In this document: positions 8,230 through 39,197 of the stretch, one piece after another | How the letters are laid out: every line of letters begins with the position of its first letter | How positions within the stretch are numbered: the first letter of the stretch is position 1 | From: Candidatus Amesbacteria bacterium RIFCSPLOWO2_01_FULL_48_25 | GTDB lineage: Bacteria > Patescibacteriota > Microgenomatia > CAZETR01 > Amesbacteraceae | Reading direction: 5' to 3' | DNA length: 64,000 nt | Assembly: GCA_001773695.1 (NCBI GenBank) | Contig: MEXN01000003.1 | Span: forward strand, 25,547 to 89,546 | The notes under the pieces: model-generated | The model's input: the letters and a program-made list of their open reading frames with translations, nothing else | The model's database searches: none | What the model was told of the DNA's origin: nothing | Program-made: the position numbers and the translations under genes

Positions 8230-9415
8230 ATGTTTCTCTGATAAAAAGTAGGCCGAAAGCTACAAGAGTTGAACGGATAATCGACGCTAACAAGGTGAAG
8301 TCCGGAGGGGGGGTAACGAGGGCTACCAACGGGGGAATTGTCCCCAGATGGGGGTTGAGCGCGGAAAAAAGACCGATAGCTACAAATTGATCTTTTAAAA
8401 GAAGATTTAATCCCAAAGCTGAAAGGAAAATAAATAAGACGGGAGTCAAAAATTGACGGGATCGGGAAACGAAAAGTGTAAAAAAGGGTAGCAACCAAAC
8501 CAGCCATTGAATATGGAATTGAGACAGAAGAATGATTAAAAGCGTCACGGCAGTAAATGACGGCAAGAGAAAGCGTTGTTCTGGCTTTTTGGCAAAATTG
8601 GCAATTATTAGCACATACGCGACAACGAAGAAAATCACCCTTTGATCCGAGACGGCGAATCCGGAGGCAAACAATCGCTGGCCCAGGGAAGATTGGAAGA
8701 CAGAGGCGCGAAAATCAACTGATCCCAAAAACGGTAACATGGGAATGAACATGGTTGCTAACCCGACCGTAAGTGTAATTAAACGCCGTTTCCAGTCGGA
8801 ATTTGAAAACACTACGATAGGTAGCAATAGTATCGGATAGGTCTTGAGGGCTGCCCCCAGCCCTAGGAATATGGCCGACTGGATGTATTGTTTTTTGGAA
8901 GCCAAATTTAGAGCGACGATAGTGGTTAGAGCCGGTAAAATATCAAATTGGCCAATGGCATAAACCCAGTAAAGAACTAGCGGGTTAAAAAGCCACAGCC
9001 ATTTTATTTTTGATTTTTCATCTTCGGAGCGGCCAAAGTTAATGAGAATTTTAACTAAGTAAATTTCGGCAATAAAGTAGGGAATTTTTAAGACTAATAG
9101 ATTTAGAAAGATATTGGGATGGAAAAGGGCCCGGCTGCCCCAATCTGCCAGCCAATTGGTCAAATCCGGTCCGGCAATCACTGATGCAACTTTGTGCCAC
9201 GAACCTAAAAGGAAATAGATAAGAGGAGGATAATTGAAAGTGTCGGTGTAGGGTAGGTGGGGTTTGTTTTGAGATATATAGGAATAAATATTAAAAACAC
9301 CCTGGGAGAGGAAACTGGCTTGGTAATATTGGGTTTTGATGTCTGGATGATATAAAAACGCGGCAAAAAATACGCGCAGCAGCACGGCTAAAAAAATTAA
9401 TTTACTTAACTTCAC
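8219..9415 (-). CDS. Polytopic membrane protein, HPDI family (putative GT-C-type transferase)
   Basis: 398 aa. Starts MKLSKLIFLAVLLRVFFAAFLYHPDIKTQ with a GTG start. Paralog of 16987..18129, sharing HPDI and IGQFDI motifs. More than 10 TM helices. Confidence 0.5.
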   Translation of the reverse strand: MKLSKLIFLAVLLRVFFAAFLYHPDIKTQYYQASFLSQGVFNIYSYISQNKPHLPYTDTFNYPPLIYFLLGSWHKVASVIAGPDLTNWLADWGSRALFHPNIFLNLLVLKIPYFIAEIYLVKILINFGRSEDEKSKIKWLWLFNPLVLYWVYAIGQFDILPALTTIVALNLASKKQYIQSAIFLGLGAALKTYPILLLPIVVFSNSDWKRRLITLTVGLATMFIPMLPFLGSVDFRASVFQSSLGQRLFASGFAVSDQRVIFFVVAYVLIIANFAKKPEQRFLLPSFTAVTLLIILLSQFHIQWLVWLLPFFTLFVSRSRQFLTPVLFIFLSALGLNLLLKDQFVAIGLFSALNPHLGTIPPLVALVTPPPDFTLLASIIRSTLVAFGLLFIRETYET

Positions 9416-10662
9416 GACTTTTCTGATTTCAAATAATAAGTCAGGACAATTATGCTACACGTTGTGATTATGGTTGCCATAAGCTGGATGGTGTTCCAAA
9501 AAGAAAGCCAGTTAACTAATACGGGGATGCGGGGAAACCACCACTCGTGGTAAAGATTGGCCAGGTGGGCTAGTGAAAGTACAATAAAAATCGGCCATAA
9601 CCTGGGACGAAAGGCAGCAGCAAGGGCCAAGAAAGGGAGGGCTGGGGCTAAATAGCGTTCGTGCATCTTAGTGAGAAGGAGAAACGAAAGGATGGGCATC
9701 AGTGATGTCGCGAGAAAGAGATTTGAGAAAGAGATTTGAGAAAGGGTAAGTCTGATTAATACAAGAGAGGCGAATGTTCCAAAAAGAAAGAGGCCCAGTT
9801 GTCCGGCTGTGACTGACCCAATGACGGGAATGGTATCCGGAATCTTTTGCAAATGAGTCGTCCAGATCCAGGGATTAAAAGCGTGGTCGGTAACCCAATT
9901 GGACCCGGAGCCGGTTTGTAATCTGTCGACATAGATTTGGATCGGCCAAAGAAGAGAGATCGATGGGGCGAATGGTAAATACACCAAATAAACAACGGAA
10001 AACTGAAGGGTTATGCCGATGATCGTTTTCGGTAAACCGAAACGACGCCAAGAAAGAATTGCGAATATGGGAGCAAAAATAATAGATGATTGCTTGAAGA
10101 GTAATGCCGCCGTAAAAGCCAGGTTGGTGGCAAAGAAATGTTTTCTATGGGTGGACCAAAGGGCCAGGAGAAAGAAAAAAATAGGCAAGGACTCGATCTG
10201 GCCCCAAATGCTACTGAGGTACCAGACGGCCGGGTTAAAAATATAGGCCATGGTTGCAATAAAAGAGCGAGAAAACCGAAATATCAAAAAGCCGATGCCG
10301 ATGTCTGCGACAATACTGGTAATTTTGGTAAATGCCGGTAAAACGTCTTGGTCTTCCAGCGCCCAAATCAGACCGGAGGGAAAAACGGGCAGTGTACGGT
10401 TGATAAACGTGGCAGCTGAATACAACAGCCGATATAACCCCACCGAGGTAGTGAAGGAATACAGGGCCAGGGGGGGGTAAGTGGGTTGCATGACCCCGGG
10501 GTATTCATGATAGTAAGCGTTGTGAAACCCGGATCGCAGGATACCGTTTCCCCAAGCGACGTGGTTATTTAAATCGCCACTGTAAATAGTTACGCTAAGC
10601 GCTAGCCTGAGCACTACTCCTAAGACCAAAATTGCTATCAGTCTTTTAATTGGCCTGGTCAT
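9412..10662 (-). CDS. Polytopic membrane protein (putative GT-C-type transferase)
   Basis: Start trimmed to MTRPIKRLIAILVLG at 10662, which gives an ATGA overlap with the stop of 10659..12251. About 416 aa with many TM helices. Contains a C8 tract and a 13-nt direct repeat. Confidence 0.5.
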   Translation of the reverse strand: MTRPIKRLIAILVLGVVLRLALSVTIYSGDLNNHVAWGNGILRSGFHNAYYHEYPGVMQPTYPPLALYSFTTSVGLYRLLYSAATFINRTLPVFPSGLIWALEDQDVLPAFTKITSIVADIGIGFLIFRFSRSFIATMAYIFNPAVWYLSSIWGQIESLPIFFFLLALWSTHRKHFFATNLAFTAALLFKQSSIIFAPIFAILSWRRFGLPKTIIGITLQFSVVYLVYLPFAPSISLLWPIQIYVDRLQTGSGSNWVTDHAFNPWIWTTHLQKIPDTIPVIGSVTAGQLGLFLFGTFASLVLIRLTLSQISFSNLFLATSLMPILSFLLLTKMHERYLAPALPFLALAAAFRPRLWPIFIVLSLAHLANLYHEWWFPRIPVLVNWLSFWNTIQLMATIITTCSIIVLTYYLKSEKS

Positions 10663-12251
10663 GGGCGGGAAGTGACCAGGTAAAACAGGGGGCGATTGTA
10701 TGGATCGGTGGCGGTGCCCAGAACCTGGATATTCCCAGGGGGGCTGATGCGCCAGTCCCAATCGCCGCCCACGTCATCGCGCTGGCTTAACAAATAAAGA
10801 TTGTTGGGCTGAAGATTTAGTCCATGATTAAAGGTGCCGAAATAATATTTGTCGGTGAGATTAAATCCATCATAGCCGGGGACGATATCTTTTTGTAATT
10901 GATCGATGGTGAATTGGTTGTGGAAGTCGGCGGGTGAATATTTAGTGTAAAAAAGAAAGCGGATTAGAGACGGTTCGTAAGTATTATTTATAAAAACTTT
11001 TTGATAACTTGGAGCTAGTTGGGATAATGAGGTCATAGCCGTTTTAAAACCAACATGCCACCAGCGGGAATAGACTTTGGGATAATGAACTAAATAAAAA
11101 TGGGCAAACCAGAGAAAGTTAATAGTAAACAGTAATAGGAGGGCAAGATTTATGAATTTTGATTTAAGATTTATGATTTGAAAAATTCCAGCGCCGATAG
11201 CTACGGAGATAGGAGCAATCATTAGGAATAGGCGTGTGGCGTGGAAAGCGCCATCGACGGTCAATGCTGCCGGGATAGGAGCAAAAACTAGCCAGATTAA
11301 CCAAACCCAAATTTTTTTCCTGGCCAAATAATAGAGACCCAAGACAAGAAATGGAGCGGTAACTGGAAGGAGTTGGCCCATAACTTGAATGCTATGACGA
11401 CCTACGGGATCTCCTCTGACAAAAAGAAAATCGGAGGAGAATGAGCGGAGATAGTTGTAAGTGAAAAGATGTGTCCAACTTTCGATTTTGTTATGAAATA
11501 ATCTTTCTCCAATCACGTCTGGGGAATCTTTTCTTAAGGTGAGAATCTTATCTACGACTTCGTTACTTTTAAAGATACTGAGAAGACCAAAGCGGTTTTG
11601 GGCTCTGCCTGAAACCAGTGAAAGGCCGAGGGGAATGAGCAGGGCGAAAAATACGGCCGTTTGGACCAAGAATGGCTTGCGCCGGCTGAGTAAGAACAAT
11701 GAAGCTAGCCACAAAGGCACGAAGACTATGGCGGTACTGTAAGAGTACATGGCCAGGGTAAAGGGTAAAGCGGAAAGGGTGAGTCTTTTTTTGAGAAAGA
11801 GGAGAGTGCCTAGCATTATTAAATCCAGCATAATGACGACTTCAAAAGCAGCCCGGGAATAATAGAGGTGCCAGGGTAAGAGTGAAAGAGCGAGGGCACT
11901 TGTGATCGAGAGTAGTTTATTTCGTGTTGTCTGATGAACAAGTAAAAATAAGATGATCGGAGCAATTGAACCGAATATTATTTCGGGGAGGCGGATTCCT
12001 AGTTCCGTCAGGCCAAAAACCGCTATTGTGGGAACGGTGGCGTACATCAGAAGCGGGGTGCGCCACTCCGACAGCGAGTGGATATAGGTTGGTAGAGGCT
12101 GGTTATATAGGTCGCGGCCGGTTTTGAGCAAAGAATAGGCTTGATAACCGGCGTCTATTTCGTCGCCAAAGAGCTCCGGGGGGGAAGTGGTGACAAAACC
12201 CAAGCGAACGACCGTGGAGAGAATCAGGATAAAGCTTAAAATCAAGCCCAT
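10659..12251 (-). CDS. GT-C membrane glycosyltransferase, ArnT/PMT-like family A
   Basis: 530 aa. PPELFGDEIDAGYQAYSLLKTGRDLYNQPLP, YSYSTAIVF. Paralog of 3021..4613. Confidence 0.75.
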   Translation of the reverse strand: MGLILSFILILSTVVRLGFVTTSPPELFGDEIDAGYQAYSLLKTGRDLYNQPLPTYIHSLSEWRTPLLMYATVPTIAVFGLTELGIRLPEIIFGSIAPIILFLLVHQTTRNKLLSITSALALSLLPWHLYYSRAAFEVVIMLDLIMLGTLLFLKKRLTLSALPFTLAMYSYSTAIVFVPLWLASLFLLSRRKPFLVQTAVFFALLIPLGLSLVSGRAQNRFGLLSIFKSNEVVDKILTLRKDSPDVIGERLFHNKIESWTHLFTYNYLRSFSSDFLFVRGDPVGRHSIQVMGQLLPVTAPFLVLGLYYLARKKIWVWLIWLVFAPIPAALTVDGAFHATRLFLMIAPISVAIGAGIFQIINLKSKFINLALLLLFTINFLWFAHFYLVHYPKVYSRWWHVGFKTAMTSLSQLAPSYQKVFINNTYEPSLIRFLFYTKYSPADFHNQFTIDQLQKDIVPGYDGFNLTDKYYFGTFNHGLNLQPNNLYLLSQRDDVGGDWDWRISPPGNIQVLGTATDPYNRPLFYLVTSRP

Positions 12252-26177: not shown

Positions 26178-27778
26178 GAGATGAATGATAAGGAATTTCC
26201 GAGGGTGCGGATGGGGGTGTTACCAAAAACTGCAACTAGTTCGTGGCGGCCAGGAGTTAGATCAAATTGCGGTCTACCCAAAAGAGGGTCCAGTTTATAA
26301 CTTGTGATCTCGGAGTTATCAAGATAATATTTCCAGCCGGGGAAGTAGTAGGTTTGCAGCTCGATGCTTCCCAGGGTAGCCATAGTAATTAAATATTTCT
26401 GGCGGTTAGATTTGAACAGCAGTGGGGAAAAAATGCCCTGACCGAAGGTAATATTTATCTCGCTACCGCGGGCGTCGGCGGGAGGAGCCGGAGCCCACTT
26501 GGGCAAATAGTCAAAAATCCCTGATGTAACTAATAACTGCCAGGTTTTGCCGGAAAACTTCTTGGCGTCGGTCATATCCGGGAACCACTCTCTGGGCCTG
26601 AAGTAATTTCCGTTTAATAATATTAATAACACTAATATTATGGAATGAAAAAGTTTTTTATTAATTACCATCGCTATGGCTCCGGAGAGGAAGGAGGCGG
26701 TGAAGACGGCCAGGGTAAGAAAGCGCCAGGGAAATTGGAGAAACTCGAGAGGTTTTAGGGCTAACCAGATGGGAGTAGATTTAGAATGACTCATAAATAA
26801 TGCTCCGAGAGTTATAAGAGCGAGAATTATGATTAGAGATTTACGGTTTATGAATTTTTTTGAGAAAATAAACAACAGGATCAGGATTGGAATTATCCAA
26901 TGTAAAAACCCCAGGGCGAAAGACATTGAATCATTGGGGCCAAGTTCGGACGAGCCGTAACCCCAATTGATGTTGAGAAATATTTGCCTGACGTCTAAAA
27001 AATGGGCCAGGTAGTTGAAATACCCGGAAGTGAGGGTCCAAACCGAAACAAATTTCGTTTCGAAAAGGACGGGGAGAGTGAAAAAAGCGGCTAGGCCGAG
27101 AGACCAAAGAGCAGACAAGGACAAATTTCTAATCGTTAGATATACAATTGACTTAACTGACCTAAATTTTATAAGCCAGAAAAGACACCAGAGAATAAGA
27201 ACTGGGGCGAAGATCATAAGCATGGGGTTGTGGGAAAGCATAAGAGCGGCGATGGAGAGGGAGGCGAAGGAAATCCATTTTGGTTTTTGACTGGCAATGA
27301 GTTTGTAGGTAGTCCAAAAGATAAGAGGATAAAAGGCCATGGCCCAGAATTCGTTTATGGCACCACGAACATAAAAGTCCACTGAATGATACGGGGCGTA
27401 AGTGTAAAAAACCGAAGAAATCAACCCCCCTCCCCTACCCCAAAACTCCCGACCCAATAAATACATATTCAAAGCCGTTATCCCAAATCCCAAAATGCCA
27501 ATGATTTTTACCACATCAATATATTGAAATCCCAAGGCACGAAATGGCTGGCCAATAAGATATGGCAAAGGTGGATAATAATTAAAAAGTGGGTAACCGT
27601 ACCCGTAGCCCAGATCTGAGACCCAGCGGCAAGGAATCTGCCAATCGGTAAAGCACTTGTCCAGTTGATACTGGCGCATGGATTGCAAATCATCATGCAT
27701 GGAAAAATAGCCTGGTTGAAGAAGCCAAGCAAAGGCAGGAAAAATAAGTAAAACAAGCAAAAATAAGTCTTTTTTCAT
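26111..27778 (-). CDS. Polytopic membrane protein of the MHD...GYGYP family (paralog of 1453..3024)
   Basis: 555 aa. SMHDDLQSMRQYQLDKC...PCRWVSDLGYGYGYPLFNYYPPLPY. Confidence 0.55.
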   Translation of the reverse strand: MKKDLFLLVLLIFPAFAWLLQPGYFSMHDDLQSMRQYQLDKCFTDWQIPCRWVSDLGYGYGYPLFNYYPPLPYLIGQPFRALGFQYIDVVKIIGILGFGITALNMYLLGREFWGRGGGLISSVFYTYAPYHSVDFYVRGAINEFWAMAFYPLIFWTTYKLIASQKPKWISFASLSIAALMLSHNPMLMIFAPVLILWCLFWLIKFRSVKSIVYLTIRNLSLSALWSLGLAAFFTLPVLFETKFVSVWTLTSGYFNYLAHFLDVRQIFLNINWGYGSSELGPNDSMSFALGFLHWIIPILILLFIFSKKFINRKSLIIILALITLGALFMSHSKSTPIWLALKPLEFLQFPWRFLTLAVFTASFLSGAIAMVINKKLFHSIILVLLILLNGNYFRPREWFPDMTDAKKFSGKTWQLLVTSGIFDYLPKWAPAPPADARGSEINITFGQGIFSPLLFKSNRQKYLITMATLGSIELQTYYFPGWKYYLDNSEITSYKLDPLLGRPQFDLTPGRHELVAVFGNTPIRTLGNSLSFISWTLILGIMIAWMRKLRLGMWI

Positions 27779-29277
27779 TTGGGTAACACCTGAAAAAATA
27801 GGGTGTATTCGCGGGTGCCGTCTGGTTTGACAGCTTTGGGGTAGCTAGAAAGAAGCTTTAAACCAATTTTTTCCGGGTCGTCATTATGGAAACGGGATGA
27901 GTTGACGATCAAAAACACTTGATTGTCGGCCAGGGCATTTTGGAGCTTTTCGTGAACCGAGTCTATCCATACTCCCACACCGATGACCCGGACATTGGAA
28001 ACGTTATTCAAATAAAGTTGCAAAGCATCAAATGGAGTGCCGAAAAATCCTTCTGACCCAACTAATACCGGCCCGGACTTTGCAAATTGGGCCAATTGGA
28101 AAGATATATCACGCAAACCTTGGCCGGCGGTCCATTCCTCTAAATATCCGGCCCGTTCTATACGGGGAAGGGGGGTGGACGGGGGGTTGAACAATAGCGA
28201 CCAGTCGACTACCAACGAAGGAATAATGACTAGACCGGCTGCAGCCAGGGTAAGAACGTGCTTTTGGGACTTTTGGCCAAAGTGTTCTATTGCGTGGGCA
28301 ATTAGAATCACGGCAAAAGGGACTGTAAACAATAAATATCTGGCGGTGAAGGCTTTGGCCAGGGATGATTGGACGAATATGGGAACGAGAAACCATAAGG
28401 CTAAGATGAGCCTCTGGCGAAGATGAGAGCGATGGACTTCAAAAGTGCCCCATATAGCAAACAGCAGGCCAATGGGAGTAGCTAAATAGAAATAAAAATT
28501 TAGAGAGTCCTTGAGATGGGGAATTAAGGGATCTAAAGGATGGCGGATAACTTCAAGCACCGGATAAACGTAATCGGCATTTCTGATCGCAATCATGTGG
28601 AACTGGGGACCGAGGCGGAGAATGTTGTACATCCCGATAGCTATCACACAAGCCACAAGCCACAAGCCACAAGCCACAATGAAATTTCTGCGAGTGAGGG
28701 GTTTAATTAAAAGAAAAACCGAAGGAGATAGGAGAAATACGAATACTGCCGGGGATTTGGTCAGCCAAGCAAAACCTAATGAGAAACCGGCGAGCATGGC
28801 CAAATCTAACCGCAGATGGATGAAAGACAGGGCCAGGAGGTTGAAAGTCCAAACATAAAACATGACCAAAAGGCTATCTGCTAAAGCCATACGGCCGAAA
28901 AAGACTGAGTAGGGCAAAACGGAGTAAATTGCGCCTGCTAGTACGGATAAACGTTTGTTTTTGAATAAAATATACGCTGTGAATGCGACACCCATGATTG
29001 TCGCTAAATCGGCAAGGGCTGAAAGAGTTCTACCGGCAAGTAAAGGATCGGAGATGATTTTGAAAAAGGGAATGGTCAACCACATGAAGAACGGTTGTTT
29101 ACCGTCGGACAAGGGCAGGAAACGAAGCGTCGCCTCGGCCCGCATGACCTGGGACCAGCGCACATAAATTGCTTCGTCGGCGAAAATTGGAAGCGAATTT
29201 AGATTTGTAAAACGAAGTAGAATACCGAAAAATAGAATTACAGCGCCAGTTAAAACTATTTTTTTCCAAGAGGTCAT
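27775..29277 (-). CDS. GT-C membrane glycosyltransferase, ArnT/PMT-like
   Basis: 500 aa. NSLPIFADEAIYVRWSQVM is the ArnT-type DE motif. Contains the 7-nt tandem repeat that encodes LWLVACGLWLVAC. Confidence 0.7.
   Translation of the reverse strand: MTSWKKIVLTGAVILFFGILLRFTNLNSLPIFADEAIYVRWSQVMRAEATLRFLPLSDGKQPFFMWLTIPFFKIISDPLLAGRTLSALADLATIMGVAFTAYILFKNKRLSVLAGAIYSVLPYSVFFGRMALADSLLVMFYVWTFNLLALSFIHLRLDLAMLAGFSLGFAWLTKSPAVFVFLLSPSVFLLIKPLTRRNFIVACGLWLVACVIAIGMYNILRLGPQFHMIAIRNADYVYPVLEVIRHPLDPLIPHLKDSLNFYFYLATPIGLLFAIWGTFEVHRSHLRQRLILALWFLVPIFVQSSLAKAFTARYLLFTVPFAVILIAHAIEHFGQKSQKHVLTLAAAGLVIIPSLVVDWSLLFNPPSTPLPRIERAGYLEEWTAGQGLRDISFQLAQFAKSGPVLVGSEGFFGTPFDALQLYLNNVSNVRVIGVGVWIDSVHEKLQNALADNQVFLIVNSSRFHNDDPEKIGLKLLSSYPKAVKPDGTREYTLFFQVLPK
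28648..28675. repeat. Heptanucleotide tandem repeat (acaagcc) x4 perfect plus partial flanks, inside CDS 27775..29277
   Basis: Read directly: cacaagccacaagccacaagccacaagccacaatg. The unit length is not a multiple of 3. Confidence 0.9.
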
Positions 29278-35815: not shown

Positions 35816-36859
35816 GTGACCAGAGTGGTTAGAGATTGCCTGATTTTGGTGGGGGTAGCGGTTGTTTCCACGGTAGTATTGTGGGTGGCAGTGGGAATGA
35901 AGACGATTTACCAGAATTTTGACGGGCCATATTACGCAGTGATCGCCAAATGCTGGTATGACAAAGAGTGTGTTGGGAAAAATTTTTCTTTCCCATTACC
36001 AGCAGAGTATTATCTGGCTCACTTCCCGCTCTACCCTGCCCTGATGGGACTATTTGGAGGAGTGGGTCTCGTGAGAGCGGCAGCATTAATAAACCTGTTG
36101 GCAACAATTGGAGCGGCTGTGGTGTTATATAAAATGGCAGGGGAGAAATTGTGGATAGCTTTGACCTGGCTGTTTTGGTGGCCGAGAATGTGGGTGGTGC
36201 GGTCTGTGGGGGGTGCGGAAACGCTACTGATACTTGGGTTGTTAGTGTCAATGTATTTTTTTATTAAGAAAAAATATGTGTGGGCTGGTGTGATTGGGGC
36301 TCTAGCTGTACTAGCTAAGCCGCCGGGAATTTTACTGTTTGGGGGATATGCGTTGTATTTTCTGGTTAAAAAGTTCGACTGGAGAGCTTGGCCACTTTTT
36401 TTAATGCCGGTAGTTCTTGGGGGCTTATTTTGGTTTTACAAAGTTCAAACCGGAGATTTCTGGGCATATTTTCATTCCGGGGACAATATTCATCTGCAAA
36501 TGCTTCCCTTTGGTGTGTTTGACAGTAATCAGCCATGGGTGGGGACGTTTTGGCTGGAGGATGTGCTGTGGGTTTATCTCATTGGTCTAATTGGAGTAAT
36601 TAGAGCGATGCGAAAAAACCCAATGTTGGGATATTTTGGAGCAGTATTTTACACGACTATTTTATTCGTGTCACACCGGGATATTGCCAGATACAGCTTG
36701 CCGCTAGTTCCGGTAGTTTTGATTGGACTATCCGAGATATTTGAACGTCGTGAGGTCAGATGGGCACTGGTACTACTGGTAATACCCATGTTTTTTTACA
36801 GCGTAAACTTTTTGCTTCATAACCAAGTGGCTATTTCCGACTGGGGACCGTTTTTGTGA
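35816..36859 (+). CDS. Polytopic membrane protein (putative GT-C-type mannosyl/glycosyltransferase)
   Basis: 347 aa, GTG start, about 10 TM helices. Plus strand, divergent from 35090..35782. Confidence 0.4.
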   Translation: MTRVVRDCLILVGVAVVSTVVLWVAVGMKTIYQNFDGPYYAVIAKCWYDKECVGKNFSFPLPAEYYLAHFPLYPALMGLFGGVGLVRAAALINLLATIGAAVVLYKMAGEKLWIALTWLFWWPRMWVVRSVGGAETLLILGLLVSMYFFIKKKYVWAGVIGALAVLAKPPGILLFGGYALYFLVKKFDWRAWPLFLMPVVLGGLFWFYKVQTGDFWAYFHSGDNIHLQMLPFGVFDSNQPWVGTFWLEDVLWVYLIGLIGVIRAMRKNPMLGYFGAVFYTTILFVSHRDIARYSLPLVPVVLIGLSEIFERREVRWALVLLVIPMFFYSVNFLLHNQVAISDWGPFL

Positions 36860-36862
36860 TAA

Positions 36863-37306
36863 TTAGGGAAGCATCAAGTCCGTGCGGGAAATTCCCACGT
36901 TGGATTCTAGGCGGTTGATAGCTTTGGCGCTTTTGATGTGGAGGCGGTCCAGAAAGTCAAAATCTTCCCTGATGACTTTTTCGATTTTGGTTAACCTTCG
37001 TTCGATTGGTTTAAGTTCTTTCTTAATAATTGCCGGAACGCTCTTACTGATTATGTTGGGCACCAATTGGTTAATGATCGCGGGGACACTCTGGTTAATG
37101 ATCGCGGGGACACTCTGGTTAATGATCGCGGGGACACTCTGGTTAATGATCGCGGGGACACTCTGGTTAATGATCGCGGGGACACTCTGGTTAATGATCG
37201 CGGGGACACTCTGGTTAATGATCGCGGGGACACGCGCGTCAACGATTGCCGTGACCTTCCTGTCAATCAGATCACCTACTTTTTGTAAATCAGAGTTAGT
37301 CAGCAT
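36863..37306 (-). CDS. Tandem-repeat protein with (S/R)VPAIINQ x8; function unknown
   Basis: 147 aa. MLTNSDLQKVGDLIDRKVTAIVDARVPAIINQ(SVPAIINQ)x6..LVPNIISKSVPAIIKKELKPIERRLTKIEK. The repeats are encoded by the 24-bp DNA tandem repeat. No signal peptide or TM helix. Confidence 0.5.
   Translation of the reverse strand: MLTNSDLQKVGDLIDRKVTAIVDARVPAIINQSVPAIINQSVPAIINQSVPAIINQSVPAIINQSVPAIINQSVPAIINQLVPNIISKSVPAIIKKELKPIERRLTKIEKVIREDFDFLDRLHIKSAKAINRLESNVGISRTDLMLP
37069..37236. repeat. 24-bp tandem repeat (ggttaatgatcgcggggacactct): six perfect copies plus one variant copy, with degenerate copies on both flanks
   Basis: Counted directly at 37069-37092, 37093-37116, 37117-37140, 37141-37164, 37165-37188 and 37189-37212. 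The copy at 37213-37236 ends in cgcg. Confidence 0.95.
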
Positions 37307-37318
37307 AGATGAATTGTA

Positions 37319-38455
37319 TCATTTGAGTGACGTCTTCCAGATAAACTTGTTGTAGATGTAGTAGTTGGCCACAAGGACGATGGCGATGGCGCCGAAATAG
37401 AAGAATTGGATAATGAGGCCGTTACCCCGAGCGAAAAATTCTCCGATGCGCAAGACGACAAACTGGATAGCCAGGGCCAGGAGTGAGGTCAGATTGAATT
37501 GGAAGAACTTGCCAATTATTTTAGCTCCCGTGACCTGATAATCCTTAAAAGTCCAGAGATTGTTGAGAGTGAAGTTACTGATGATAGCGATTTCCCCGCC
37601 AATAACTGTGGCTATGGATGGAGTCAGGATATGGGTGAAAACACTGGTAATTTCGAAAAACAGGGTTTGGAGAGTGAGTCCGGTGCCACCGACGACTGCG
37701 AACTTGAGGAAACGACGGATTTTAGGGTTGTGCCATTGAAGAAGAAAGATGACGCGAAGAGTTTCCTGCATTTCGTTTTTGATGATTTTGGACTCTCCTT
37801 CCTCGCGATTTCCGAACGCAAATGGGACTTCTTTGACCTTGGCTCCTTTTTGAACCATGTAGAAAAACAGATGAATCTTGTAAGCAAATCGCTTGGATAA
37901 AAGGGTACTAAAATCAAATTCATCCATAAACCCTTTGACCCGGGATAGTTTGAAGCCGCCAGTGACGTCATGAATATGCGGCATCATAAGAGTAATCCTG
38001 GCGACTAGATTGCCAACAACGCTTAAAAATTTTCGATCAATGCTCCAATTATTTGGTATGGAGCCTCCCGGTACATAACGAGAGGCAACTATATAGTCAT
38101 AACCGCGATCAATCTGCTCGATCAGGCGGGGAATATCAGCTGGGGGGTGTTGAAAGTCGGCGTCCATTTCCATTAACCAGTCTGCTTTGAGTTCCTCCAT
38201 GGCATACGGCATGCCCGCAGCATAAGCGGCACCTAGTCCTTCTTTTTTGGAGTTGACCAATAGATGCAGCCAGGGATATTTTTTTTGAAACTGTCTGACG
38301 ATATCTGCTGTCCCGTCCGGACTGGTATCGTCTACATAAAGAAGCTCAACCTGATGATTTTTGATGTTGGGTAAAATATCTGCCATTGCCGAAACCATAC
38401 GGGGAACACTTTCGGCTTCGTTATAAGAAGGCATGACAATAACAACTTTGACCAT
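37319..38455 (-). CDS. GT2 polyprenol-phosphate glycosyltransferase (GtrB/DPM1-like) fused to a C-terminal GtrA-like flippase domain
   Basis: Start trimmed to MVKVVIVMPSYNEAESV at 38455. LLYVDDTSPDG...MEMDADFQHPP...VASRY. The C-terminal LKFAVVGGTGLTLQTLFFEI...IWKTSLK is GtrA-like, with 4 TM helices. Confidence 0.7.
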   Translation of the reverse strand: MVKVVIVMPSYNEAESVPRMVSAMADILPNIKNHQVELLYVDDTSPDGTADIVRQFQKKYPWLHLLVNSKKEGLGAAYAAGMPYAMEELKADWLMEMDADFQHPPADIPRLIEQIDRGYDYIVASRYVPGGSIPNNWSIDRKFLSVVGNLVARITLMMPHIHDVTGGFKLSRVKGFMDEFDFSTLLSKRFAYKIHLFFYMVQKGAKVKEVPFAFGNREEGESKIIKNEMQETLRVIFLLQWHNPKIRRFLKFAVVGGTGLTLQTLFFEITSVFTHILTPSIATVIGGEIAIISNFTLNNLWTFKDYQVTGAKIIGKFFQFNLTSLLALAIQFVVLRIGEFFARGNGLIIQFFYFGAIAIVLVANYYIYNKFIWKTSLK

Positions 38456-38504
38456 AATTACATGATACAGGCTGACGGTTTGATTTGCATTAGGCTTCCG
38501 GTAA

Positions 38505-39197
38505 TTAAAGAGTGAGAAGGTCTGAGATGTTGGCTGCCTGCAACGATGGTCGAATTCCACCATCTGAAGTTTCTGGGCTGAAAATCTTGGTTCTGCCGTT
38601 GGGAACATGTATGGTATAAGATCCGAGCTTCCCCGGAATACGTAGATCAGCTTGCAAATCGTCGCCAATTATGACCCATTTCCGGGGAGGGGTTTGGGAC
38701 TGCGAAAAAAAATCCTGCCATTGCTCTGACTTAGGTCTCTCAACTCGAAAACAATGAGTATGAGCAAACTTGCCAGACAAGCCAGTTTTGTTTTTCTTGT
38801 GATTTGTCCAATTGAGTAGAGCGTGGGTAGTCATAACAGTAACGAAATGTTGATTTAATTGATCCATGACGGCGATGGCACCCGGAAACAAATTGGGAAT
38901 ATCGGTGGCGTAAATTTGATCGATTCTATCTAAAGCCGCTTCTACTTTGGAATCTGTGTCGGGAATTATCAGTGTCCTGGCAGCTATCAGTACTGCCACT
39001 TTGACGATAACCGGATTGACGTTGAACTCTTTTTTGGTTCCGCGAACGCAATCGTCAATGACTTTCCTATCCACGCCTAAGGTTTGGCTGGCCTGGGCGA
39101 TCGCTTTTGAGAATACTTTTGATGTATCAATCAGTGTTCCGTCAAAGTCGACGGCGACATGAGTATATCCCTGATCTCTTAGCTTCTCGAACAGCAT
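38505..39197 (-). CDS. HAD-superfamily hydrolase/phosphatase
   Basis: 230 aa. VAVDFDGTLID is motif I (DxDGT), and IIGDD is motif IV. Confidence 0.65.
   Translation of the reverse strand: MLFEKLRDQGYTHVAVDFDGTLIDTSKVFSKAIAQASQTLGVDRKVIDDCVRGTKKEFNVNPVIVKVAVLIAARTLIIPDTDSKVEAALDRIDQIYATDIPNLFPGAIAVMDQLNQHFVTVMTTHALLNWTNHKKNKTGLSGKFAHTHCFRVERPKSEQWQDFFSQSQTPPRKWVIIGDDLQADLRIPGKLGSYTIHVPNGRTKIFSPETSDGGIRPSLQAANISDLLTL

Follow-up and report, generated by a model that had tools for sequence, protein, structure and literature searches.

An in-frame 24-bp tandem repeat of variable copy number in a gene for a small, probably cytoplasmic octad-repeat protein of the Patescibacteria

The 64-kb stretch of patescibacterial DNA analyzed here (hereafter, the window) carries on its minus strand a gene for a 147-aa protein, the middle of which is encoded by an array of 24-bp units, and in near-identical genomes this array comprises two, three, four, five or seven units without ever leaving the reading frame. 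We consider it likely that the locus is an in-frame variable-number tandem repeat (VNTR) in a real coding gene for a small, probably cytoplasmic, all-helical protein, the octads of which act as a length-tolerant spacer. According to this proposal, one octad would have been amplified lately at the DNA level in this lineage, and the array would grow and shrink by slipped-strand mispairing or unequal recombination between perfect 24-bp units, giving rise, within a population that is clonal in other respects, to alleles of two to at least five to seven units. Each unit would add eight residues to a spacer held between two conserved ends, such that a copy change would alter the length of the protein and never its expression.

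The repeat array and its coding frame

Tandem Repeats Finder placed the top array of the window at 37068-37233 (period 24, 6.9 copies, 100% matches, score 332), with the runner-up among the 54 reported rows reaching a score of 66. Read in codon register on the minus strand, the array opens with RVPAIINQ (first codon CGT; 23/24 nt to the consensus), continues with five exact SVPAIINQ units (AGT GTC CCC GCG ATC ATT AAC CAG; 24/24 each) and closes with an SVPAIINQ unit that carries a final CAA in place of CAG (23/24). The unit length is a multiple of three, and the copies, 100% identical within the array and scoring 23-24 of 24 as codon-register units, form a suitable slippage substrate. An earlier note on this DNA had described a near-perfect 24-bp array with degenerate copies on both flanks, in agreement with the units listed in Table 1, while the eightfold repeat of its title gives way to a count of seven VPAIINQ units. 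Every unit contains a GATC site, amounting to seven sites at 24-bp spacing (37079-37223); across the window, GATC occurs near expectation (220 observed vs 238 expected).

Codon changes and homologs were used to assess the reading frame, the product of which includes the peptides VPAIINQSVPAIINQ and DFDFLDR. Relative to the consensus unit, the downstream unit SVPAIIKK differs at seven third, one first and no second codon positions; judging by the alignment, the downstream degenerate units are an old duplication that is maintained by purifying selection in the minus-strand frame. Outside the repeat, comparison with the sister-species ortholog yielded 26 synonymous and 16 non-synonymous changes. 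Moreover, in distant homologs of other lineages, adjacent DERVPKII units of the same amino acids differ at 1-7 of 24 nt. Being alike in peptide and diverged in DNA, these units point to selection on the peptide, and the octad repeat is, from such comparisons, under purifying selection. Taken together, codon-level comparison shows the minus-strand frame 36863..37306 to be a real protein-coding gene.

A different product can be imagined, as the plus-strand ORF 36882..37355 (157 aa) is open across the array and would specify a strongly hydrophobic (LMIAGTLW)n membrane peptide (maximum KD19 2.31); alternatively, the array might be a non-coding, protein-binding repeat. However, the plus-strand ORF shares sequence with the end of the GtrA gene, the sister-species ortholog contains stop codons in all antisense frames, the substitutions seen from unit to unit and from species to species lie at third positions when read in the minus-strand frame, and the minus-frame peptide motif is kept in distant homologs despite their diverged DNA. 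We regard these alternatives as highly improbable, and the 157-aa ORF was rejected as effectively refuted by the antisense stops, the third-position substitutions and the conservation of the minus-frame motif. Scanning of the whole 64 kb returned no Rfam family at gathering threshold and no tRNA gene, and at the repeat locus itself no informative feature emerged from the Rfam, tRNA or promoter/terminator scans.

As the earlier note had stated, the 147-aa protein has neither a signal peptide nor a transmembrane (TM) segment; a hydrophobic N-terminus is likewise absent, the maximum 19-residue Kyte-Doolittle mean being 1.24. By hydropathy, the product is thus probably cytoplasmic, i.e., neither membrane-bound nor secreted. 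Its start codon lies 12 nt after the stop codon of a GT2 glycosyltransferase fused to a GtrA-like TM domain, an arrangement kept in the sister species, and because of this short distance the two genes are probably co-transcribed. The listed GT2-GtrA ORF (449 aa, TTG start) runs ~160 nt into the preceding HAD hydrolase gene and public gene calls give 414 or 371 aa, which makes a start codon downstream of the listed TTG probable. On the other side, a 347-aa polytopic membrane protein is encoded convergently, its stop codon being 3 nt from that of the repeat gene; at the corresponding place the sister species holds ~240 bp extra (L034 857-1096). Concerning these neighbors, the fusion protein had been named correctly, with both GT2 and GtrA recovered by Pfam, whereas the 347-aa protein, formerly termed a membrane transferase, has no Pfam match.

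Around the repeat gene, envelope-glycosylation genes form a very large cluster, ~30 kb in extent (window ~16000-43300; loci L041-L046). It comprises at least four PMT_2 paralogs, about nine GT2 genes, one GT1 gene, a Polysacc_synt flippase and dTDP-rhamnose genes (rmlABCD-like), together with several large membrane proteins that lack a family match.

Table 1 Features of the repeat locus and of two further perfect repeats in the window.
Feature	Position in window	Strand	Basis or remark
Convergent 347-aa polytopic membrane protein, no family match	35816..36859	+	conserved in all loci and in the sister species
147-aa octad-repeat protein gene (ATG at 37306, stop 36863-36865)	36863..37306	-	ORF list, codon changes, homologs
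C-terminal helical, coiled-coil-like part, ELKPIERRLTKIEKVIREDFDFLDRLHIKSAKAINRLE...	36866..37018	-	hydrophobic moment peak at 100 degrees; AF2 pLDDT 92-97
Downstream degenerate units LVPNIISK and SVPAIIKK	37019..37066	-	12/24 and 16/24 nt to consensus
Variable tract in codon register, seven 24-nt VPAIINQ units	37067..37234	-	Tandem Repeats Finder and codon-register alignment
Upstream degenerate unit KVTAIVDA	37235..37258	-	15/24 nt to consensus
Conserved N-terminal motif MLTNSDLQKVGDLIDR	37259..37306	-	family consensus M-x-LT-x-x-DL-x-x-I; alignments A1-A3
GT2 glycosyltransferase fused to GtrA-like TM domain, upstream gene	37319..38668	-	Pfam PF00535 and PF04138
Perfect 7-bp control repeat	28647-28679		CACAAGC x4.7 on plus strand, GCTTGTG x4 on gene strand
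PMT_2-family membrane glycosyltransferase gene holding the 7-bp repeat	27775..29277	-	
Perfect 13-bp x2.5 repeat (GAGAAAGAGATTT)	9712-9744		unit not a multiple of three
449-aa ORF holding the 13-bp repeat	9412..10761	-	no Pfam match

Copy number across near-identical genomes

When about 5.8 billion proteins were searched, P0001 (four units), P0002 (three units) and P0003 (two units) were recovered, and the allele series was compiled from the contigs of these three proteins, from a metagenome scan for the 3′ junction of the array and from anchoring on an invariant neighbor gene with 10-kb flanks. Two units were present at loci L001-L010, L042 and L043 (22 contigs, including the NCBI MAG GCA_035258405.1), three at L011-L013, four at L015 as well as in P0001 (a protein without a locus, from a slightly different strain), five at L041 and L045, and seven in the window only. 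The junctions and the two edge units are the same in all of these alleles, which are always in frame, with full-length products of 107, 115, 123, 131 and 147 aa for two, three, four, five and seven units, respectively. Over 21.5 kb, both a two-unit (L043) and a five-unit locus (L041) aligned to the seven-unit window with 0 mismatches, the gap in the array being the sole difference. Thus, copy number differs among close genomes with conserved flanks, with counts of four and above being assembly-based and possibly under- or mis-estimated. P0001 is set apart by A24E and by loss of its stop codon, leading to an 11-residue C-terminal extension, unlike the normal 123-aa four-unit allele at L015. Exact look-up found neither the seven-unit protein nor P0001 on record elsewhere, and the exact array junction had 0 matches in GTDB representative genomes.

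The earlier note had suspected a recent, in-frame and length-variable array and had proposed a comparison of repeat numbers among related genomes; the array proved to be all three, with 2-5 units in near-identical genomes against seven in the window and one in the sister species. As to how the series arose, the interior unit (AGT...CAG) is an exact chimera of the two edge units, as misaligned pairing predicts. It follows that the whole series is derivable from the two-unit allele by slippage alone, with zero point mutations, and slippage would be the mechanism we infer. In the sister species, whose flanks are about 82% identical, ortholog P0008 carries a single unit (KVPHIVKK) at the syntenic position, followed by a C-terminal part 74% identical to that of the window protein. 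The tract can hence shrink to one octad, and the expansion appears specific to the lineage of the window. That several alleles occur on a zero-SNP background is suggestive, though only suggestive, of reversible switching within a clone.

De Bruijn assemblers collapse a perfect array once it exceeds the k-mer in length but resolve one shorter than k, and perfect tandem arrays are a recognized cause of such collapse (PMC6868369). We therefore weighed whether a single true allele could underlie the series, with the differing counts produced by collapse or mis-expansion during short-read assembly. Most loci indeed stem from short-read metagenome assemblies and the counts partly follow the pipeline, nearly all megahit contigs having two units and JGI contigs having three, four or five. 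In addition, the seven-unit array (166 bp) is longer than typical reads and k-mers and lacks a second record. By our own calculation, the minimal array traversal at a given k has the shortest length that is not below k-1 and leaves a remainder of 22 on division by 24, corresponding to two units for k<=47, three for k<=71, four for k<=95, five for k<=119 and six for k<=143; five units are therefore what minimal traversal gives for k of 96-119. Against an artefactual origin of the whole series, megahit k141 contigs carry the 46-bp (two-unit) array and another scaffold the 70-bp (three-unit) array. Both are far shorter than k, so the k-mers spanning them are read-derived and the counts read-supported, whereas a 166-bp array collapsed at k=141 would have left 142 bp (six units) rather than 46. 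Furthermore, one and the same pipeline produced two units from samples ERZ4903070 and ERZ4903137 and three from ERZ4903125 (L013), the three-unit allele was recovered by three different assembly sources, and an internal control, i.e., a perfect 7-bp x4 repeat 8 kb from the array, was invariant in every locus. We accordingly judge a purely artefactual series to be unlikely and hold it credible that at least two alleles (two and three units) plus one or more long alleles are real. The four- and five-unit JGI contigs could be collapses of longer alleles, and the count of seven is that of the window alone.

Two further perfect repeats in the window (Table 1) have units that are not multiples of three. 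A change in copy number of the 7-bp repeat would frameshift the PMT_2 gene in which it lies, which is the geometry of a classical contingency locus; yet it has four copies in 6/6 related loci, and the exact 500-aa PMT_2 protein occurs in at least 23 contigs. Next to the VNTR, contigs from four separate assemblies (L005, L007, L009 and L012) begin at window position 37576, 37586 or 37308, in or just past the GtrA part, and L010 has SNPs at 37478 and 37489. Together, these contig starts and SNPs suggest a strain-variable spot or a recombination boundary beside the VNTR.

Predicted structure, protein family and genomic context

Supplied with the family alignment, AlphaFold2 modeled the window protein as one continuous helix (residues 4-137, mean pLDDT 87), with pLDDT of 81-87 in the repeat and 92-97 in the tail, and family member P0148 likewise as a single helix (residues 7-98, pLDDT 83). 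The beta-solenoid that had been suggested for the repeat is thus replaced by a prediction of a single long helix. Along the repeat tract, the hydrophobic moment peaked sharply at 90 degrees per residue (period 4.0) and was low at 100, whereas that of the C-terminal 42 residues peaked at 100 degrees; a canonical heptad coiled coil (period ~3.5 residues, 100-103 degrees) was rejected for the tract on account of the 90-degree peak. The period of 4.0 and the proline recurring every eight residues fit poorly with a continuous alpha-helix or a heptad coiled coil, implying that the AF2 monomer models may be over-confident, and no structural precedent was found for an 8-residue, proline-punctuated repeat of period 4.0. 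The octad tract may nevertheless form a helical rod, and if it is helical each unit would add about 12 Å (8 x 1.5 Å), making for a difference of about 60 Å between alleles of two and seven units.

Neither the window protein nor up to 27 family members gave a match above threshold in Pfam, PHROGs, NCBIfam or PADLOC, and the window protein had no defence-system match. Among the sub-threshold hits, CdrL_M (PF24252) reached at best 18 bits vs a 27-bit cut-off, with 9/27 members matching weakly, and DUF5663 (PF18908), CIS_TMP (PF19268) and DUF445 (PF04286) matched up to 4/27 members. A relation to CdrS/CdrL was rejected, as the published CdrS/CdrL proteins are ribbon-helix-helix regulators of unrelated architecture. 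An exhaustive phmmer search returned 422 matches, mostly eukaryotic low-complexity proteins that align to the repeat only and were rejected as homologs for that reason; only small proteins whose N- or C-terminal parts match as well were kept as family members. The members thus defined are 75-200 aa long, every one of them labeled 'hypothetical', and share three parts, namely an N-terminal motif (M-x-LT-x-x-DL-x-x-I-x-x-[LI]-[IV]-D), a middle of one to about ten octads (xxVPxIIx, typically [DN]ERVPxII) and a heptad-like, coiled-coil-like helical tail. Going by named genomes, they are sparsely distributed over Saccharimonadales, other Patescibacteria and Lachnospiraceae from mouse gut. A search of the literature for the peptide motifs found no papers. 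The octad-repeat protein is, on this shared architecture, a member of a real but unannotated small-protein family, so that the earlier statement of 'no recognisable family' stands as regards curated entries and falls as regards the existence of a family. Since the members have one to about ten octads and the sister species a single unit, the tract appears tolerant of length; taken with the architecture, this favors a spacer role, for which we infer length variation to be mostly near-neutral or at most modulatory.

Gene neighborhoods of family members were stable inside each lineage and unrelated between lineages. The order is transketolase, aldolase, [gene], PfkB in Saccharimonadales and ilvC, 738-aa protein, Acyl_transf_3 (membrane acyltransferase), [gene], leuA in Lachnospiraceae, while the remaining members lie in SecA/RF-1, RecG or NUDIX contexts; conserved-neighbor analysis found no partner gene shared across lineages. 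Patescibacteria 'Hain_H41' contigs have ~1.9 kb without a called gene after the family member (L021 3936-5864), and in the sister contigs L022 and L023 no gene is called from the family member to the contig end, 1.1-1.6 kb downstream. A phage or mobile-element protein (tape measure, scaffold) was rejected because the contexts consist of chromosomal housekeeping genes; tblastn gave no match in 50,697 phage records, none was found in IMG/VR, and the PHROGs matches were all sub-threshold.

Considering the locus itself, one may ask whether the protein is an adaptive molecular ruler, i.e., a helical protein working with the co-transcribed GT2-GtrA and the envelope-glycan cluster, whose length would set a distance, with the VNTR creating population heterogeneity in a surface glycan of a bacterium of episymbiont type. 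This reading draws on the position of the gene directly behind GT2-GtrA, within the large cluster that contains GT2, PMT_2, flippase and rml genes, on the retention of that position in the sister species, on the presence of multiple alleles on a single haplotype and on the Lachnospiraceae homolog that directly follows a membrane acyltransferase. In documented coiled-coil rulers, insertions or truncations alter glycan length (PMC5082667). On the other hand, other family members sit among unrelated housekeeping genes, the octad-repeat protein has no catalytic domain or membrane anchor, and the sister species manages with one unit. We therefore find an adaptive ruler doubtful. Less probable still is the specific version of a free-standing cytoplasmic ruler or spacer for an envelope glycan, for which the 24-bp array would be a tuning knob that generates cell-to-cell heterogeneity in glycan length or spacing and might thereby affect host attachment or recognition. 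Were the ruler reading true, an episymbiont would possess a graded contingency mechanism instead of an on/off switch.

Significance and comparison with known systems

Patescibacteria (CPR) are ultra-small, mostly uncultured and often episymbiotic, and to our knowledge hypermutable loci are almost unstudied in them. The locus offers a clean natural allele series (1, 2, 3, 4, 5 and 7 units) within an envelope-glycosylation cluster, against a genome that is invariant elsewhere, and the VNTR is a ready marker for following sub-populations in time-series metagenomes. Should the length variation be functional, contingency here would be graded instead of binary; otherwise the locus would represent a neutral coding VNTR of an ordinary kind, located in a linker that tolerates changes in length. 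In addition, the analysis brings to notice a conserved, unannotated small-protein family common to Patescibacteria and Lachnospiraceae.

Exchangeable apolipoproteins A-I and A-IV resemble the octad-repeat protein in consisting of tandem short helical segments bounded by prolines. Indeed, apolipoprotein A-IV was the sole borderline PDB sequence match (E = 9e-4), and a weak match to Pfam Apolipoprotein was seen as well, but neither match passes its threshold and both are probably compositional. The periods are 11 and 22 residues in apolipoproteins, against 8 residues in the octad-repeat protein.

Another parallel is WbdD, the coiled coil of which sets O-antigen chain length in E. coli O9a (PMC5082667, PMC3482155). 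Similar to WbdD, the octad-repeat protein is predicted to form a long helical rod and could define a distance through its length; it is also likely cytoplasmic and is encoded in a setting of glycan biosynthesis. WbdD, however, combines kinase and methyltransferase domains, a membrane-binding C-terminus and a heptad trimer (PMC5082667, PMC3482155). The octad-repeat protein differs in having no catalytic or anchor domain—it is modeled as a helix only and has no membrane segment—as well as in a tract period of 4.0 with periodic prolines and in a family context that is not glycan-specific.

With contingency loci of Haemophilus and Neisseria, the locus shares a hypermutable intragenic repeat, placement in an envelope-glycosylation cluster and several alleles per population. 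Loci of that type switch genes on and off by frameshift or promoter spacing, and their units of 1-9 nt usually have a length not divisible by three. In contrast, the 24-nt unit described here changes length only, every allele being in frame with a full-length product. The earlier note had presented the repeat as a candidate length-variable contingency gene, a designation that does not hold in the classical sense, given a unit incapable of on/off switching, a product that looks cytoplasmic and distant members encoded outside glycosylation clusters. Nothing marked the product as surface-exposed, host-interacting or part of restriction-modification, its sole link to such functions being the location in the glycan cluster.

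The best match is with coding VNTRs. In-frame intragenic tandem repeats are known from yeast adhesins (Verstrepen et al. 2005, as cited in PMC6868369), and copy-number variation of tandem repeats is known in M. tuberculosis (PMC12817950). As in such VNTRs, the unit is a multiple of three and the copies are nucleotide-perfect; genomes that are otherwise identical differ in how many copies they carry, the changes never disturb the frame, and the array is probably generated by slippage or unequal recombination. The classic examples, with their known phenotypes, are found in surface adhesins, PE/PPE proteins or promoters, whereas the present repeat lies in a small protein that has neither a signal peptide nor an anchor and belongs to a lineage of uncultured Patescibacteria. 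The best-supported view is therefore that the mechanism belongs to a known category, intragenic tandem repeats, here operating in a small-protein family that had so far been undescribed.
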